4,458 bases of DNA from a virus (Duplodnaviria > Heunggongvirae > Uroviricota > Caudoviricetes): IMG/VR virus record IMGVR_UViG_2582580934_000005; one strand, 5' to 3'. The notes under the pieces were generated by a model. It saw nothing but the letters and a program-made list of their open reading frames with translations, was not told where the DNA came from and did no database searches. Within the stretch, counting starts at the first letter, position 1; each line of letters begins with the position of its first letter. A program made the translations under genes and the position numbers. Positions 1 to 4,458 of this stretch are shown here, piece by piece.

Positions 1-179
1 CAGCAAGAGCTGCTGCAACGCATTGACAAGGTTTTTGATTTTTTTCTGAACCACTAAGAAACCAGAACATGCACACACAAAAAAACCGCTTGCCATGCCG
101 CAATCGGTCAGGTTACATTTCCGCTGCACCTCATAAAACGGGTGCCGGGATTCTCAACCCGATACAGAGCAAAGCGCAT

Positions 180-200
180 AACCGCGCCAGCGGTTTTTTT
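180..200 (+). terminator. Putative rho-independent terminator: 6-bp stem AACCGC/GCGGTT, loop GCCA, followed by a T-run
   Basis: Read directly: aaccgc(180-185) gcca gcggtt(190-195), with T at 194-200. About 120 bp downstream of a short open frame at the window start that ends at 57. The stem is short, so this is tentative. Confidence 0.35.
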
Positions 201-212
201 GTGCGTACTGTA

Positions 213-241
213 TTGCCACGTCTTTTTCGCGTCAGAATTAT
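213..241 (+). promoter_or_regulatory. Candidate sigma70-type promoter (TTGCCA, 17-bp spacer, AATTAT) upstream of the small-ORF/gpA gene block
   Basis: TTGCCA at 213-218 (5/6 to TTGACA), 17-bp spacer, AATTAT at 236-241 (4/6 to TATAAT, with conserved A2 and T6). Sits just after the terminator-like hairpin and before the leader. Sequence pattern only. Confidence 0.25.
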
Positions 242-379
242 GGCGGGGCGTACGGGGCCGACTTCGGTCGGGCCGGATTCTTTGCTCTCCGGTGTTGAGA
301 ACCCTGTACGTCTCGCCACCCCGAGATTCTCAACTCTGGATGGTGAGTTATTTCTATCACCGAGCAAAGAGGCCACACC

Positions 380-610
380 ATGGCAAACCGCAAACAGCAC
401 CGCGCATACGCTGCGCGTCGTCACATCCAGACTGAAATCAACCGCAGACTTTCCCGCGCATTCCGCGTCGCTAAAATCATGCATATCAATATGCTGCATG
501 AGCGTAGCTGCGAACTTTCAAACCTCTATTCATCCGCTGTTTTCAGCTATCTGGCGGATGATCTGCGTGAGCTTCAGCAGCTCTTCCAGCAGCAAAACAA
601 ACCCCATTAA
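380..610 (+). CDS. Hypothetical small protein (76 aa), Arg/Lys-rich N-terminus; possible DNA- or RNA-binding regulator
   Basis: ATG at 380 with AAGAGG (366-371) 8 nt upstream; stop TAA 608-610. Codon usage looks enterobacterial (CGC/CGT, CTG, CAG). Same strand as, and immediately upstream of, the replication gene. No family recognised. Confidence 0.5.
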   Translation: MANRKQHRAYAARRHIQTEINRRLSRAFRVAKIMHINMLHERSCELSNLYSSAVFSYLADDLRELQQLFQQQNKPH

Positions 611-682
611 TTCCTGTTCCGGGCCTTTCCTGCACCTTGCGGCGGGAGGCCTTCGCACATCTGTAGTAAAGAGAATTGCAGC

Positions 683-1072
683 ATGATTGACGCTCATGAC
701 TTCACAAGATGGGTGCGCACACAGGACACCCGTCTGGCTCCCGTTCTTCAGGGATTATTTGATCTCTACATCCGTGGTCGTGACAACAGAGCACGCACCA
801 CAAAACCGGAGAATGCAGACACCCTTTATTTCACAGTAGACGACTGCTACCGCGTGGACTTCACACCACACGGGCTGGCGTTGCACTGCCTGACACCACA
901 CGGCGAATCACTACTGGCGTATTACGACTCCCCGGCCTCCGTATTTGCGGCAATGCTGGCGCATCGCACTGCTGGCGGGTGTGCCTCGCTGAGTGAATAC
1001 ACCGCTGAATTTGACCGCCTTTCCGCCATCTTCTCGCAGGAGTGGCAGCGCGTGACGGGATACCAGCCATGA
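683..1072 (+). CDS. Hypothetical protein (129 aa), translationally coupled to the downstream replication initiator
   Basis: ATG at 683 with AAGAGA (669-674) 8 nt upstream. Its TGA stop (1070-1072) overlaps the ATG (1069-1071) of the gpA-like gene in an ATGA arrangement. No family recognised. Confidence 0.55.
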   Translation: MIDAHDFTRWVRTQDTRLAPVLQGLFDLYIRGRDNRARTTKPENADTLYFTVDDCYRVDFTPHGLALHCLTPHGESLLAYYDSPASVFAAMLAHRTAGGCASLSEYTAEFDRLSAIFSQEWQRVTGYQP

Positions 1073-3924
1073 GTGAGTTTGCATGGAGCTGGAATGAACC
1101 ACGACCAGCCATTGATCCGGCCAGATTTACGGAGCGCAGGCAGGAAACTGAAACCGACTTGCAACGCGTCATCCGTTACTACCTTGAGGCGGACAAAAAG
1201 GCCCGGGAAGAACAGGAAGCGAAGGAGGAAGCCTTTTTCGCACAATCCGCCATGGGTAAAAAACTCATGGCATCCCTTGAGGAAGCCGGACAGCGTGAAA
1301 AGCTGGCTCAGAGCATCATCAGTAAGCGCCGGGCAACAGAACAAGACCCGGTAGCCCGTGCCTTTGCCACACTGAAGGCGCTTCCCGTTTATCTGCGAGA
1401 ACCTCTGAGCCGCCACCTCTCTTTCCTGCGCAAAAAACAGGAAGCCGATCGCCGGAAAGGCAAAAAGAGCTGGCAGGCTGAACGCTACGCGCGCGGAACC
1501 CTGCGCAAAATATTCGAACGTCTGGACCGCACCGACCACCGCTGGCTGACACCGGGTTATCGCTCCCTTGCCGGACGCGAACGCCTGGATGATTTGCTTT
1601 ACCTGCCGCAGCTCAACAAACACCAGATACAGACGCTGGCCACCATGACGGCGGCGATGTTCAGCAGCACCTTCGAAAAACTCTGCGATGGCTTTGGCGC
1701 GACTGATGGCGAGCTGACCATGGATGTAACGCTGAAGGCGTATCAGATGCTGGCCCGCATGGCGTTACACCTGCACGCCATGCCTCCGCATTATGACGCA
1801 CTGACAACAGACAAAGACCGGAGGAACGAACCGGACACGGAGCTGCTGCCGGGCGCAATCCTTCGCCTGACCTGTGCGGAATGGTGGAAACGAAAACTGT
1901 GGCTGTTACGTTGCGAGTGGAGAGAAGAACAACTCCGCGCCGCCTGTCTGGTTTCCAGAAAAACATCGCCCTATCTGAGCCAGGACGCGTTAAGCGAGTT
2001 TCGCGCACAGCGCGAGAAAACACGCGATTTCCTGAAAAGTTTCATGCTGGAAAACGAAGACGGGTTCACGATTGATCTCGAGACAGTGTATTACGCGGGA
2101 GTAAGTAACCCGGTTCACCGTAAAGCAGAAATGATGGCCACCATGAAGGGACTGGAACTTCTGGCCGAAGCCCGTGGCGACAGAGCGGTGTTTCTGACTG
2201 TCACCTGCCCGTCAAAATACCACGCAACAACGGAGAACGGTCATCCGAACCCCAAATGGAACGGGGCCACCATGCGCGACTCCAGCGATTACCTGGTTAA
2301 CACGTTTTTTGCGGCGGTCCGCAAAAAACTGAACCGCGACGGCCTGCGCTGGTATGGCATCCGCACGGTGGAGCCTCACCATGACGGCACCGTGCACTGG
2401 CATATGATGGTCTTTGCTCATCCGGAAGAAATCGACAGCATCGTGGCCATCACCCGCGATATTGCCATTCAGGAAGACCGCCACGAGCTGGGCAATGACA
2501 TTACTCCGCGCTTTAAGGTGGAGTATGTCGACGGCTCAAAAGGCACACCAACCAGCTATATCGCCACCTACATTATCGCGACCTACATCGGAAAAAACCT
2601 GGACAGCCGCGCCGTGGATGGCATCGACCCGAAAACGGGCAAACCACGCGTTGACCACGAAATCGGAAAATCAATGGCCGAGAGCGTGGAGCGCGCCATC
2701 GGCTGGGCACGCCTTCACCGGGTCCGCCAGTTCCAGTTCTTTGGCATCCCCTCCCGTCAGGTGTGGCGTGAACTCCGCCGCCTTGCCAGCCAGATGGCAC
2801 GCAACCCGGAAGGCCCGCAACGGCTGAAGGATGACGCAATGGATGCGGTACTCGCTGCCGCTGATGCCGGATGTTTTGCCACCTACATAGAGAAACAGGG
2901 CGGCGTACTTGTTCCGCGCAAGGACTACCTGATTCGCACCGCCTACGACCTCGCCGATGAGCTGAACGATTACGGCGAACAGAGCGTACAGATTTACGGG
3001 ATCTGGTCACCACTCATCGGGGAATCCTCCCGTGTGTGCACGCATCCGGATAACTGGAAGCTGGTAAGACGTAAACCGGAAGCGGAAGACAGCGCCCGCG
3101 AAAATGGTTTTGACCTTCAGGGCGGCCCTGCCGCCCCTTGGACTCGTGGCAATAACTGTCCCCGTGTACAGGAAACGGACAACAACGGGACAGAACAGCC
3201 GGAAGAACGGCCAGCACCGTGGCCGCAGCTTCCTGACGGCATTGAAGTGAACGAATGGATGCGCTCACTGAAACGGCACGAACGCCGGGCGCTGATGCGT
3301 TCGCTTCGTGACAAACAGGCAAAAAACAGCAGTGATGAAATGCAGAGCTGGACACAGAGCCGCAAACAGCAGCGGCCTTTGCCTGATAACCACGAATTAC
3401 TCGCTAGAGAATGGCGGGAGTCTGCTGAATCTCTCGGCCTGCATATCGGTGAACAACAAATGCAGCACCTGTTACGGGGCGGCAGTCTGTACGTTGACGG
3501 CAGCATCATTGCACCGCAGGGATTTGAAATTGTACGCAAACCGGATACCCGCCCGGACAGCCGAATCACGCAGCTCTGGCAGCGCCTGAGCCGTAATCAC
3601 GGTGTAAGCAGCACGGAGATCCGCCATAACCCGGTCGCCAGCTATCTGGCACAGCTGGGGGCATCAGACCCTGAAGCCGCCACACGCCTGGCATCCACAC
3701 TTCAGCAGGACCAGAACACCATGAAAACACCCGTTACCGTGCTTTCTGACATGCTGCGCGCCATCCGCGACGCAGAGCACGCACAGAGAATCAGTGAAAC
3801 CACTGAACGCGCCCGCCGCAAAGCAGACCTGCTGCGGGGTGGCCTGACCAGTGGAAACAAAAAACAGACAGAAACGGGACTCACGAATCCCGTAAATGAG
3901 CAAAAAACGCGCAGCGATATATGA
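1069..3924 (+). CDS. Rolling-circle replication initiator / replication endonuclease, phage P2 gpA family (HUH endonuclease), 951 aa
   Basis: Long ORF in the supplied track (1042-3924). Contains VEPHHDGTVHWHMM (HWH at 2395-2403) and a tyrosine motif SYIATYIIATYIGKN (2554-2598), which match what I recall of the P2/186 A protein motifs (VEPHHDGxxHWHMM; GYIAKYISKN with catalytic Tyr 450/454). Start placed at ATG 1069 (ATGA overlap with the upstream stop) in preference to the track's GTG 1042, which has an AGGAG directly abutting it with no spacer. Longer than the roughly 760-aa P2 protein as I recall it. Confidence 0.9.
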   Translation: MSEFAWSWNEPRPAIDPARFTERRQETETDLQRVIRYYLEADKKAREEQEAKEEAFFAQSAMGKKLMASLEEAGQREKLAQSIISKRRATEQDPVARAFATLKALPVYLREPLSRHLSFLRKKQEADRRKGKKSWQAERYARGTLRKIFERLDRTDHRWLTPGYRSLAGRERLDDLLYLPQLNKHQIQTLATMTAAMFSSTFEKLCDGFGATDGELTMDVTLKAYQMLARMALHLHAMPPHYDALTTDKDRRNEPDTELLPGAILRLTCAEWWKRKLWLLRCEWREEQLRAACLVSRKTSPYLSQDALSEFRAQREKTRDFLKSFMLENEDGFTIDLETVYYAGVSNPVHRKAEMMATMKGLELLAEARGDRAVFLTVTCPSKYHATTENGHPNPKWNGATMRDSSDYLVNTFFAAVRKKLNRDGLRWYGIRTVEPHHDGTVHWHMMVFAHPEEIDSIVAITRDIAIQEDRHELGNDITPRFKVEYVDGSKGTPTSYIATYIIATYIGKNLDSRAVDGIDPKTGKPRVDHEIGKSMAESVERAIGWARLHRVRQFQFFGIPSRQVWRELRRLASQMARNPEGPQRLKDDAMDAVLAAADAGCFATYIEKQGGVLVPRKDYLIRTAYDLADELNDYGEQSVQIYGIWSPLIGESSRVCTHPDNWKLVRRKPEAEDSARENGFDLQGGPAAPWTRGNNCPRVQETDNNGTEQPEERPAPWPQLPDGIEVNEWMRSLKRHERRALMRSLRDKQAKNSSDEMQSWTQSRKQQRPLPDNHELLAREWRESAESLGLHIGEQQMQHLLRGGSLYVDGSIIAPQGFEIVRKPDTRPDSRITQLWQRLSRNHGVSSTEIRHNPVASYLAQLGASDPEAATRLASTLQQDQNTMKTPVTVLSDMLRAIRDAEHAQRISETTERARRKADLLRGGLTSGNKKQTETGLTNPVNEQKTRSDI
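2560..2589 (+). repeat. 15-bp imperfect tandem duplication inside the catalytic tyrosine motif of the gpA-like gene (encodes IATYI-IATYI)
   Basis: atcgccacctacatt (2560-2574) followed by atcgcgacctacatc (2575-2589), 13/15 identical and in frame. Gives Tyr at codons 497, 501 and 506 (numbered from the 1069 start). Confidence 0.7.
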
Positions 3925-4000: not shown

Positions 4001-4458
4001 ATGAAAATTTGTATCGACGACGGCTCCACCAACATCAAGCTGGCATGGACTGAGAACGGCGAACGCCGCAACGCCATCAGCCCGAACAGCTTCAAGTCGG
4101 AATGGTCTGCGCCGTTCGGTGGTACGCAGCCCGCGAACTACATGCTTGATGGCGTGCGCTATGGTTTTGATCCGGTCAGCGATCGCTTTGTCCAGACGAC
4201 CGACACGCAATACCAGTACAGCGATGTGAATGTCATTGCCATTCATCACGCGCTGGTCAAATCAGGCATCACGCCACAGGAGGTGGATGTGGTTGTCACC
4301 CTGCCACTGAGCGAGTATTTCGACACAAACGCACAGCCGGACATGGCCAACATCAGCCGCAAAAAAGCGAACGTTATGCGCCCGGTGGAGTACCAGAACG
4401 GTGAGGCATTCACTATCCGTAACGTACGGGTTATGCCTGAATCCATTCCGGCTGGCTT
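4001..4458 (+). CDS. parM: ParM/StbA-like actin-type plasmid segregation ATPase (5' partial; continues beyond the window)
   Basis: ATG at 4001 with AGGA (3989-3992) 8 nt upstream; in-frame stop TAA at 3974-3976 bounds the start. My translation MKICIDDGSTNIKLAWTENGERRNAISPNSFKSEWSAPFGG...YSDVNVIAIHHALVKSGITPQEVDVVVTLPLSEYFDTNAQP...RKKANVMRP...FTIRNVRVMPESIPAG shares blocks with the N-terminal half of R1/R100 ParM(StbA) as I recall it (IDDGSTNIKL, ISPNSFK, YSDVNV, HHAL, KKAN, VMPESIPAG). Not in the supplied ORF track because no stop occurs within the window. Confidence 0.88.
   Translation, partial: MKICIDDGSTNIKLAWTENGERRNAISPNSFKSEWSAPFGGTQPANYMLDGVRYGFDPVSDRFVQTTDTQYQYSDVNVIAIHHALVKSGITPQEVDVVVTLPLSEYFDTNAQPDMANISRKKANVMRPVEYQNGEAFTIRNVRVMPESIPAG

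Follow-up and report, generated by a model that had tools for sequence, protein, structure and literature searches.

A probable IsrK-C4 antisense-RNA control cassette in the early operon of a P2-like prophage

The leader that precedes the replication operon in the DNA analysed here (the window, 4458 bp in all) is crowded with repeats and hairpins, which raises the question of what this leader encodes and which gene it serves. An earlier note on the same DNA read positions 58-379 as non-coding, possibly with a small RNA or a control circuit ahead of a replication gene, and this general reading is borne out by the recognition of two Rfam RNAs. We consider it likely that positions 73-379 hold a control cassette of the IsrK-C4 antisense-RNA type, set within the early operon of a P2-like prophage. 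The cassette is an ordinary kind of phage RNA switch, the same module as P4 seqA-CI-seqC and P1/P7 c4. All parts lie on the plus strand, in the order promoter (90-119), isrK (126-200), C4 (236-323), targets (327-371), orf76 and gpA, and are as follows.

73-93, plus strand: left arm of a long inverted repeat, overlapping an A7 tract and the -35 of the IsrK promoter
90-119, plus strand: putative sigma-70-type promoter of the IsrK-like RNA (TTGCCA-18-TACATT, consensus scan)
126-200, plus strand: IsrK/P4-seqA-like small RNA (Rfam RF01394, 62.8 bits, model positions 1-77 of 77)
151-158, plus strand: b1, upstream b target (TTCTCAAC), in the loop of IsrK hairpin 2
166-174, plus strand: a1, upstream a target (AGAGCAAAG), single-stranded in IsrK and 9/9 complementary to 280-288
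180-200, plus strand: IsrK intrinsic terminator (AACCGC-GCCA-GCGGTT plus T7; terminator scan and Rfam isrK 3' hairpin)
186-206, plus strand: right arm of the long inverted repeat, overlapping the 3' half of the terminator stem and the U tract
236-323, plus strand: C4/P4-CI-type antisense RNA (Rfam RF01695, 78.5 bits, E 7.7e-15, model positions 1-87 of 87)
327-334, plus strand: b2, downstream b target, a TTCTCAAC copy on the orf76 mRNA leader
341-362, plus strand: RNA hairpin between b2 and a2 (GGTGA-N10-TCACC dyad), a predicted fold in the window
362-371, plus strand: a2, downstream a target (GAGCAAAGAG; inverted-repeat search), overlapping the orf76 Shine-Dalgarno AAGAGG (367-372)
380-610, plus strand: orf76, homologue of P4 epsilon (helper derepression/anti-repressor; Pfam PF25738 Derepression, 29.4 bits)
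683-1072, plus strand: orf129 (phrog_3237), function not assigned, its stop overlapping the gpA start (ATGA)
1069-3924, plus strand: gpA rolling-circle replication endonuclease (Pfam PF05840 Phage_GPA, 426.7 bits), in the same operon

Both RNA assignments lie above the gathering scores of their families, which are 50 for RF01394 and 45 for RF01695. The first RNA consists of a hairpin (126-145), a second hairpin presenting b1 (146-161), a single-stranded stretch with a1 and the intrinsic terminator, the last of which the earlier note had already seen as a terminator-like hairpin at the right end of a repeat. Its predicted fold agrees with the family structure (folding energy z-score -3.1), and its stems are 98.6-100% paired in alignment A3, made up of 36 distinct leaders that belong to P88-like (Xuanwuvirus) prophages related to this one. 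The same model matches the P4 seqA region at 60.8 bits. Judged by score and layout, 126-200 may thus be regarded as a member of the isrK Hfq-binding RNA family. The promoter at 90-119 is the positional equivalent of P4 PLE, and transcription would start at approximately G126. In the window the -10 element ends 6 nt before position 126; a -35/-10 pair ending 6-7 nt before the Rfam isrK 5' end is likewise present in P4, N15, Stx, mEp460, ST64B and the Yersinia phage, and the promoter-isrK-terminator layout was found in seven distant homologues, the promoter being a consensus match only.

The second RNA comprises a closing stem (241-257/302-318), a UUCG hairpin (258-271), a further hairpin (272-293) whose loop (277-288) is a', and the single-stranded b' (294-301). 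The minimum free energy fold, at -47.6 kcal/mol (z-score -4.9), is the same as that of the family, pairing in its three helices is complete (100%) across the 36 leaders with both-sided compensatory changes in four pairs, and the P4 CI region matches the model at 74.9 bits. Score, architecture, flanking a/b targets and a target placed over a ribosome-binding site all point to 236-323 as a C4 family member. One C4 carries two a' hairpins. The hairpin CCGAC-TTCG-GTCGG at 258-271 had been described as lying downstream of a promoter; the hairpin is present, and it is an internal helix of C4. Consensus scans gave no convincing promoter or terminator belonging to C4 itself. The promoter-like site at 213-241 was rejected as a C4 promoter: a transcript from it would begin within the closing stem of C4, many relatives have TCGCCA as a degraded -35, and a spacer of 24-25 nt is all that distant relatives offer. 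Folding and covariation across homologues, proposed earlier as a check, thus returned family structures and compensatory pairing, and promoter prediction on both strands returned these two plus-strand sites (90-119 and 213-241) and none on the minus strand within 1-1100.

The link between the two RNAs and the downstream gene is provided by two sets of short repeats. The 8-mer TTCTCAAC occurs exactly three times in the window (0.13 expected; 0 of 200 shuffles reach three), directly at 151-158 and 327-334 and as the reverse complement at 294-301. The number, orientations and RNA pairing proposed for this 8-mer in the earlier note hold, with the third copy corrected from 326-333. A second triplet that had been overlooked, GAGCAAAG, lies directly at 167-174 and 362-369 and as the reverse complement at 280-287, the window having four matches vs 0.18 expected. 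The TTCTCAAC triplet is b1/b'/b2 and the GAGCAAAG triplet is a1/a'/a2 of the same system.

These patches covary in relatives. In alignment A3, the pairing of a1/b1 with a'/b' is complete (100%), with 11 of 16 pairs changed on both sides (4/7 for b1:b' and 7/9 for a1:a', each 100% paired), and that of a'/b' with a2/b2 reaches 93.1%, with 10 of 19 pairs changed on both sides (4/8 for b':b2 and 6/11 for a':a2), while slid controls paired only 29-53%. All six patches vary together among the 36 leaders, and in a four-sequence alignment the differences concentrate in the six patches and are compensatory. Among 45 unique leaders, 14 a' types and 7 b' types occur in 18 combinations, and all 45 retain 9 bp of a':a1, at least 8 bp of a':a2 and at least 7 bp of b':b1/b2. 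The P88 type has b TTTCCAC and a CAACTACAG, and the PhiR44_2 type b TTCGCAG and a CTACACAAG. Predicted duplex energies are approximately -31 kcal/mol for cognate vs approximately -18 for non-cognate partners. Such orthogonal a/b specificities in near-identical backbones constitute a natural panel for the study of RNA-RNA specificity and phage heteroimmunity. The idea that the a' specificity of the window is common to satellites or lambdoid phages was rejected: exact matches to its a' hairpin in IMG/VR were found in P88-like contexts with an epsilon-like gene downstream in 40 of 40 cases, and there is therefore no evidence for helper-satellite cross-talk at this specificity.

Downstream of C4, a2 lies on the Shine-Dalgarno sequence in every leader variant, and AAGAGG stands 7 nt before the orf76 ATG at 380. 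The dyad GGTGA (342-346)-N10-TCACC (357-361) between b2 and a2 is present as first reported. It is not a conserved DNA operator but an RNA hairpin, kept in relatives with different arm sequences: the 341-362 hairpin is predicted in 17 of 18 spacer variants (the exception is L011), with differing right arms such as AACTTAC and ACTCAC, and is also visible in the P4, Stx and mEp460 sequences. The gene behind this leader, orf76, scores barely above the PF25738 cut-off of 27, and is 33% identical to P4 epsilon over 51 aa (BLASTP, E 5e-9; hhalign probability 95.4%). On this identity and near-cut-off Pfam score, orf76 is a putative epsilon-type anti-repressor, and we infer that it would be the gene directly gated by C4.

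The element itself is a P2-like prophage (P88-like, Xuanwuvirus) whose genes include integrase, C/cox and P2-type head genes, and which is chromosomal at 1363 of 1365 places in E. coli genomes. The leader of the window recurs with 100% identity in E. coli PE15 and D72. P2-like prophages of the helper type are present in about one-fifth of complete E. coli genomes. The IsrK-C4 cassette was not found in the prototypes P2 and 186 at E <= 0.1, and our search of the literature on P88, Xuanwuvirus and P2-like phages turned up no account of it. P2-like phages also carry the antisense immunity module of the P4/P1 type, where it directly precedes an epsilon-type anti-repressor homologue and gene A. By visual inspection, no LexA box (CTGT-N8-ACAG) lies near either promoter. 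The cassette is a candidate explanation of induction and replication control in a P2-like group without the 186-type LexA-Tum circuit.

Comparison with known systems defines how far the parallels extend. The layout isrK-C4-b2-hairpin-a2-Shine-Dalgarno-ATG with an adjacent promoter was detected in P4, N15, Stx phages, mEp460, ST64B and the Yersinia phage. In P4, CI pairs with seqA and seqC and blocks replication-gene expression, and seqA and IsrK are described as homologous in structure (PMC4825925, PMC3632133). P4 and the window have both Rfam families in common, with order and strand unchanged (isrK corresponding to seqA and C4 to CI), a promoter just upstream of the first RNA, targets duplicated on both sides, a hairpin followed by a2 over the Shine-Dalgarno, and an operon with an epsilon homologue and then a replication protein. 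They differ in that the window belongs to a full P2-like phage of the helper type whereas P4 is a satellite; IsrK and C4 are 35 nt apart in the window and 107 nt apart in P4; gating falls first on the epsilon homologue in the window and on an ORF starting MATTLTP in P4; and the replicase is gpA, a rolling-circle nickase, instead of the P4 alpha primase-helicase. In addition, a 21-bp inverted repeat of the window is missing in P4, and orf129, which had been considered as a P4 orf151 homologue, was dropped from that role and is unrelated, direct comparison giving no similarity.

In P1 and P7, c4 blocks ant translation at the ribosome-binding site, which is the basis of heteroimmunity (PMC12197685). 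The immI region (c4-icd-ant) resembles the window in that the a'/b' of the C4 RNA are complementary to a1/b1 and a2/b2 (PMC12197685, PMC3632133), that the downstream target over the ribosome-binding site controls an anti-repressor, and that the a/b variation is compensatory. Unlike P1, which enters this comparison from the literature, the window has an anti-repressor candidate of the epsilon family rather than Ant, its a1/b1 element is a full terminated IsrK-type sRNA, and a replication gene lies within the same operon. The Gifsy-1 IsrK-STnc1160/orf45-AnrP locus likewise has an IsrK with its own promoter and leaky terminator and an anti-repressor gene downstream (PMC4825925). There, a processed RNA derives from the read-through transcript and IsrK activates downstream translation in trans; Hfq binding and trans activation by IsrK have been shown only for Gifsy-1 (PMC4825925). 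The Gifsy-1 model depends on orf45 translation in the C4-like region and on translational coupling, whereas in the window AUG 240 is out of frame with orf76, its ORF is not conserved in the relative L132, and the downstream genes are different. N15 also has isrK and C4 in tandem and shares the b specificity of the window (GTTGAGAA and TTCTCAAC), but has another a specificity and other downstream genes and is a linear plasmid-prophage; its anti-repressor is controlled by a small processed RNA according to Ravin 1999, as cited in PMC3632133.

From these precedents, the following scheme may be proposed for the cassette. The promoter at 90-119 would give an IsrK RNA of approximately 75 nt ending at 200. 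Production of C4 and of the downstream mRNA from it requires read-through of the IsrK terminator; read-through, or transcription from the early promoter Pe, would yield a precursor from which C4 is excised, as RNase P cuts C4-type RNA from precursors in P1 and P4. C4 would then pair with b2/a2, in trans or in cis, and occlude the ribosome-binding site, so that orf76 would be silenced and orf129 and gpA would be limited through lost translation and Rho-dependent polarity. As the terminator scan found no intrinsic terminator between C4 and orf76, any effect on gpA hinges on this presumed polarity. The expected outcome would be a second, RNA-level immunity added to the C repressor, in which the many a/b variants would set heteroimmune specificities. 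By the precedent of Gifsy-1 IsrK, the window's IsrK with a1/b1 may be a competing or decoy partner of C4; if it competes, the IsrK:C4 ratio would decide whether the anti-repressor and replicase are made. Transcript ends, processing and the level of C4 action (translation or termination) are carried over from the homologues. The model supported by experiment for Gifsy-1 includes a translated small ORF that overlaps the C4 region, and constitutive expression of the C4-like STnc1160 failed to relieve IsrK toxicity (PMC4825925), a result suggesting that a simple repressor/decoy scheme may be incomplete.

The strongest alternative concerns the level of control. In P4 style, C4 would bind a1/b1 and a2/b2 of the nascent transcript and make transcription stop early, at the IsrK terminator, at Rho-dependent sites or at both, with occlusion of the ribosome-binding site being secondary. 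We regard this as a tentative possibility and as the less probable course. P4 seqA-CI-seqC is the closest homologue in sequence and structure, the gene order (epsilon, then replicase) parallels that of P4, a1 ends only 5 nt 5' of the terminator stem, and P4 CI RNA is reported to bring about termination via pairing with seqA and seqC (PMC4825925). The exact placement of a2 on the Shine-Dalgarno in every variant, however, is the P1 c4 arrangement, and the lack of an intrinsic terminator downstream of C4 in the terminator scan also argues against termination as the main event. Translational block and termination are not mutually exclusive and can coexist.

A broader proposal is that P2-like helper-type prophages run a second, P4-type RNA immunity/induction switch gating their own epsilon-type anti-repressor and replicase, with a combinatorial two-address a/b code and a helix-dependent IsrK terminator. 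Taken with all its parts, this proposal appears rather unlikely, albeit worth stating. If true, it would point to the helper phage family either as a partner with which P4 exchanged its immunity-plus-epsilon module or as the source of that module.

The helix in question arises from the long inverted repeat. Its core, AAAAAAACCGCTTG (79-92) and CCAGCGGTTTTTTT (187-200), is 13/14 complementary as first described and lies far beyond shuffled expectation (two matches vs 0.00 in 200 shuffles). The repeat extends to 21 nt (73-93/186-206, 19/21 or 90% complementary). It had been suggested to delimit a small RNA, which does not fit, because IsrK starts at about 126, 3' of the left arm, and because the repeat is absent from distant homologues: the P4, N15, Stx, mEp460, ST64B and Yersinia cassettes contain no counterpart, their best scores of 5-6 being at chance level, and the view that the repeat is kept in distant cassettes was rejected. 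The left arm shows no variation among the 45 unique P88-like leaders, nor in L132, a relative of 79% identity. The long repeat is thus real but lineage-specific, and lies outside the account given by the IsrK-C4 model. A reading as an inverton was also discarded, as a search of 5426 E. coli genomes with a synthetic flipped sequence brought up no flipped allele; none was present in 1171 E. coli genomes, where the best full-length matches were 81.8% identical and the one inspected was in native orientation.

One explanation of the repeat, which we judge unlikely, is that it makes the IsrK terminator promoter-dependent. RNAs from the IsrK promoter, starting at 126 without the left arm, would terminate, whereas RNAs from Pe would carry the left arm, which would compete for the 3' half of the terminator and its U tract or create an RNase III site, and lytic Pe transcription would thereby reach orf76 and gpA. 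The complementarity is far beyond chance, both arms are invariant in the 79%-identical relative although the intervening promoter spacer differs, and the cassette is located within the early operon of P88-like phages. Equilibrium folding is also consistent with such a switch, the distal pairing displacing the terminator stem only in RNAs starting upstream of 79: the probability of the stem is 0.93 for an RNA starting at 126, and for an RNA starting upstream 0.3-0.5 at length 195 and approximately 0 at length >=200. Against it stand the absence of the repeat from all distant cassettes and the 95-nt span of the helix, which would normally fold more slowly than local hairpins. There is no covariation in the repeat because the arms never vary; as to tract length, the arms of one relative both change, to A6/T6, but in two others it is only the T run that is shorter. 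Moreover, the distal helix abuts the U tract and could itself terminate, and part of the complementarity arises because the A7 is placed like an UP element and the T7 is required by the terminator.

It is very improbable that the region codes for protein, either as a 205-aa ORF (69-686), which is carried in annotations as 'hypothetical' or 'ash family protein', or as a 148-aa ORF running from AUG 240 to an ATGA where orf129 starts. Of 54 unique relatives, 50 have no stop in the frame across isrK-C4, 73 of 83 loci keep the 148-aa ORF open, there is a weak Pfam Phage_ASH match (19.5 bits), and Gifsy-1 orf45, which overlaps the C4 homologue, is reported to be translated (PMC4825925). However, a minus-strand frame is about equally open (47/54), the Phage_ASH score is under the cut-off, and the residues matched (16-111) correspond exactly to the two RNA genes. 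The variable patches are radical changes in protein while being perfectly compensatory in RNA, the variation of orf76 is highest at its third codon positions, the second positions in the alternative frame, and the ORF ends after 57 aa in the divergent relative L132. The 205-aa, 148-aa and minus-strand ORFs were rejected as genes, none having a family match over the cut-off or being conserved in L132. This prophage region, which is very common in E. coli and is now labelled 'ash family protein', 'hypothetical protein' or left blank, is hereby re-annotated as holding two RNA genes.

The proposal of a plasmid-style copy-number leader of the R1 CopA or ColE1 RNA I kind, or of a plasmid origin element, is hardly tenable. 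The cassette does lie upstream of a replication gene, parM/parR come after gpA, one 34-kb circular 'plasmid' record also contains the element, and R1 CopA/CopT and ColE1 RNA I likewise are small structured RNAs making loop contacts in the leader of a replication-gene operon. Plasmid counter-transcript RNAs are made from the strand opposite to their target and match it along their full length, whereas the regulator in the window is on the same strand as its targets, pairs by two short discontinuous patches of 8-10 nt and forms part of a prophage immunity circuit. The two RNA genes lie on the plus strand, facing no minus-strand promoter-like site, and the phage gene content and chromosomal location described above, together with a first controlled gene that is an anti-repressor homologue and not rep, also contradict plasmid-type control. 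As to an origin, similarity to the P2/186 nick region is not found in 58-379; alignment to the annotated P2 and 186 ori places this region inside gpA, at approximately 3118-3165.

On the plus strand of the leader, an Rfam scan detected two full-length RNA genes, isrK and a C4 antisense RNA, both above the Rfam gathering scores, in agreement with the suggestion of an earlier, sequence-only note that a small RNA might be encoded here. The arrangement of these genes, their targets and the neighboring genes is as follows.

55-57: TAA ending the upstream ORF
90-119, plus strand: promoter-like site TTGCCA-18-TACATT, ending 6 nt 5′ of the IsrK start
126-200, plus strand: isrK (RF01394), full length, 62.8 bits (gathering score 50)
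151-158, plus strand: b1, direct copy, upstream target in the loop of IsrK hairpin 2
166-174, plus strand: a1, direct copy, upstream target
236-323, plus strand: C4 antisense RNA (RF01695), full length, 78.5 bits (gathering score 45)
280: a′, reverse-complement copy of GAGCAAAG, in the second hairpin loop of C4
294-301: b′, reverse-complement copy of TTCTCAAC, in a single-stranded segment of C4
327-334, plus strand: b2, direct copy, downstream target
362-371, plus strand: a2, direct copy, downstream target overlapping the orf76 Shine-Dalgarno sequence AAGAGG (367-372)
380-610, plus strand: orf76
683-1072, plus strand: orf129, whose stop overlaps the gpA start
1069-3924, plus strand: gpA replication endonuclease (Pfam Phage_GPA, 426.7 bits)
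4001 onward: parM

When folded alone, IsrK and C4 are each predicted to adopt the family structure (z-scores of -3.1 and -4.9, respectively), and their internal stems are 99.8% paired in a 36-sequence alignment. The previously noticed UUCG hairpin, CCGAC-UUCG-GUCGG at 258-271, corresponds to the first of the internal C4 helices. In a related locus (L067:236-340; IMG/VR UViG_2582580934_000004), C4 has a duplicated second hairpin (Rfam, 73.9 bits) and carries two differing a′ loops, one of the window type (TTCTTTGCTCT) and one of the PhiR44_2 type (TTCTTGTGTAG); this C4 may have dual specificity, or it may be an intermediate of recombination.

The earlier note had counted three copies of the 8-mer TTCTCAAC; the count holds (3 versus 0.13 expected), but the third copy was placed one base off and lies at 327-334. 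A second triple had been overlooked, namely GAGCAAAG at 167 and 362 in direct orientation and at 280 as the reverse complement. The covariation analysis proposed there was carried out, and these patches do co-vary in relatives. The leader is approximately 87% identical between phages whose flanks are approximately 96% identical, with its differences concentrated in the six a/b patches, where they are compensatory at all three places: the b and a elements are TTCTCAAC and GAGCAAAG in the window, TTTCCAC and CAACTACAG in P88, and TTCGCAG and CTACACAAG in PhiR44_2. Eighty IMG/VR loci encoding orf76 homologues yielded 45 unique leaders, which comprise 14 a′ types, 7 b′ types and 18 combinations; all 45 retain pairing of 9 bp for a′:a1, at least 8 bp for a′:a2 and at least 7 bp for b′:b1/b2. 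In the 36-sequence alignment, 100% of cells are paired between a1/b1 and a′/b′ (11 of 16 pairs changed on both sides) and 93.1% between a′/b′ and a2/b2 (10 of 19), compared with 29-53% when the partner was slid by 1-3 columns. The mean duplex energy is -31 kcal/mol for cognate and -18 kcal/mol for non-cognate combinations. This direct comparative evidence identifies the a/b repeats as RNA-RNA recognition elements that define exchangeable specificities. Phage N15 (L086:1483-1671) shares its b specificity with the window (b′ GGTGTTGAGAACCC, b2 GAGATTCTCAACTCTGG) and has a different a specificity, and therefore the a and b modules seem to undergo shuffling across phage families, even unrelated ones.

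The GGTGA/TCACC dyad reported at 342-361 is present and is predicted to be an RNA hairpin between b2 and a2. Such a hairpin is predicted in 17 of 18 spacer variants (the exception is L011), its right arm differing among them (TCACC, AACTTAC, ACTCAC), and P4, Stx phages and mEp460 show comparable hairpins. The product of orf76 is assigned by similarity to the P4 epsilon/Derepression family (Pfam, 29.4 bits with a cut-off of 27; BLASTP E value, 5e-9; hhalign probability, 95.4%).

The comparisons establish the RNA genes, their structures and a co-varying complementarity over the orf76 ribosome-binding site. By extension from homologues, IsrK would be a primary transcript ending at 200, and read-through or transcription from Pe would give a precursor from which C4 is processed. 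Pairing of C4 with b2/a2 would keep orf76 from being translated and would have a polar effect on orf129 and gpA; IsrK, through a1/b1, would compete for C4, so that the IsrK:C4 ratio would determine whether the anti-repressor homologue and the replicase are expressed. An action on transcription termination, as in P4, is just as legitimate an alternative and is compatible with the translational block. Work on Gifsy-1 indicates that details may be more complex, including translation inside the C4 region and the behavior of STnc1160 (PMC4825925). Regarding promoters, a -35/-10 pair occurs at the position equivalent to 90-119 in P4 (PLE region), N15, Stx phages, mEp460, ST64B and a Yersinia phage. 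A promoter-like site at 213-241 is doubtful, because its predicted start falls within the C4 closing stem, its -35 reads TCGCCA in many relatives, and only 24-25 nt separate the two RNAs in distant relatives.

A protein-coding reading is suggested by a 205-aa ORF annotated over the region in PhiR44_2 and named "ash family protein" by PGAP. However, the match to Pfam PF10554 (Phage_ASH) is below the cut-off (19.5 bits) and coincides precisely with the two RNA genes, the same model is matched by the obsolete P4 "cI ORF" (59.7 bits), a minus-strand frame is open just as often, the variable patches would be radical changes in a protein, the ORF from AUG 240 ends early in the 79%-identical relative (L132), and variation inside orf76 itself peaks at third codon positions. 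The coding reading is thus not supported. ORFs are annotated over the region at window 69-686 (plus strand) and 131-499 (minus strand) and at P4 L084:8168-8584 (minus strand); those named "ash family protein" (PGAP), "hypothetical protein" (PhiR44_2, P88 gp13) and the old P4 "cI gene product" seem to be the isrK and C4 RNA genes read as protein. In P4 (L084) and the loci L085, L087, L088 and L090, an AUG is conserved at C4 positions 5-7, at the 5′ edge (AAUUAUGG). In P4 and several lambdoid phages, the reading frame opened by this AUG extends across C4, b2, the hairpin and a2 and is shared by the downstream gene (...EAAIMATIP...), a relation not kept in the P88-like group; this open frame may be related to the translated "orf45" of Gifsy-1.

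The possibility that the leader is an origin element was not borne out, since the P2/186 ori nick region aligns to approximately 3118-3165, within gpA. The ori nick site annotated in P2 and 186 (GCGGC..CTGCCGCCCCTTGGACTCGTGGCAATAACTGT) aligns with window 3118-3165, which is therefore the probable origin of this phage; many Peduoviridae that have otherwise diverged retain this segment (62-nt megablast matches, Klebsiella and Salmonella phages).

The 14-nt inverted repeat described earlier was confirmed (13/14 complementary) and extends to 21 nt (73-93/186-206, 19/21 complementary). Its core was never attained in shuffles, and it is strictly conserved in P88-like phages, including the 79%-identical relative with a differing promoter spacer; distant cassettes have no counterpart. 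The idea of an inverton was rejected, as the flipped allele was not found in 1171 genomes. Equilibrium folding predicts that only RNAs starting upstream of 79 lose the terminator stem to the distal arm: RNA begun at 126 has a P(terminator) of 0.93, compared with 0.3-0.5 at length 195 and ~0 beyond 200 for upstream starts. This modeling suggests promoter-dependent termination or an RNase III site as a hypothesis; the arms, which do not vary, show no covariation.

By similarity, the window is early-region DNA from a P2-like prophage of the P88/Xuanwuvirus group (Peduoviridae), with 95-97% megablast identity to PhiR44_2, P88, Citrobacter PhiSM and several E. coli records. Gene order in related genomes is int, C repressor, cox, small early genes, leader, 76-aa gene, 129-aa gene, gpA, parM and parR. 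The early regions of the prototypes P2 and 186 gave no C4 or isrK match, and the cassette is therefore a feature of this sub-lineage. Of 5426 complete E. coli genomes, 1181 carry the leader, which occupies 1363 places on chromosomes and 2 on plasmids. Identity of window 58-400 over 1182 E. coli records is bimodal (457 at ≥99%, 659 at 80-90%, few between), a distribution in keeping with discrete specificity alleles and not with gradual drift.

Systems of this kind are already well known from P1/P7, P4, N15 and Gifsy-1. P1/P7 c4 has the same arrangement of C4 segments, duplicated targets and ribosome-binding-site overlap (PMC12197685), as does P4 seqA-CI-seqC (PMC4825925; PMC3632133), whose seqA and CI regions scored 60.8 bits on isrK and 74.9 bits on C4, respectively. 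In P4, the cassette is followed by epsilon, orf151, orf106 and alpha; no known function was found for orf129 in the comparisons made. IsrK-C4 pairing was noted before in lambdoid prophages (PMC3632133), and both RNAs are already annotated in one GenBank record, an Stx phage. Our literature search found no description of the cassette in P88-like or P2-like phages and no report linking it to an epsilon homologue and gene A.

The sequence just 5′ of the cassette varies among relatives (P88 L001:4084-4960 versus window 1-75): the window has a 100-aa ORF here, P88 has a lipoprotein/serine-protease gene together with a hairpin, and L132 and PhiSM each have a gene for a DNA-binding protein. Similarity restarts at approximately 74-76, the outer end of the left arm of the inverted repeat, which therefore looks like a recombination boundary. 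Yersinia phage vB_YpM_39 has a full-length match to ryfA RNA (L089:149-447, minus strand, 134.6 bits) approximately 1 kb 5′ of its isrK-C4 cassette. On the other side, the plasmid partition genes parM/parR lie directly 3′ of gpA in this P2-like integrative prophage (window 4001-4458 and downstream in L001, which is P88, and L003), and a 34.5-kb circular "plasmid" record, NZ_CP148288.1, is the entire phage genome including the integrase.
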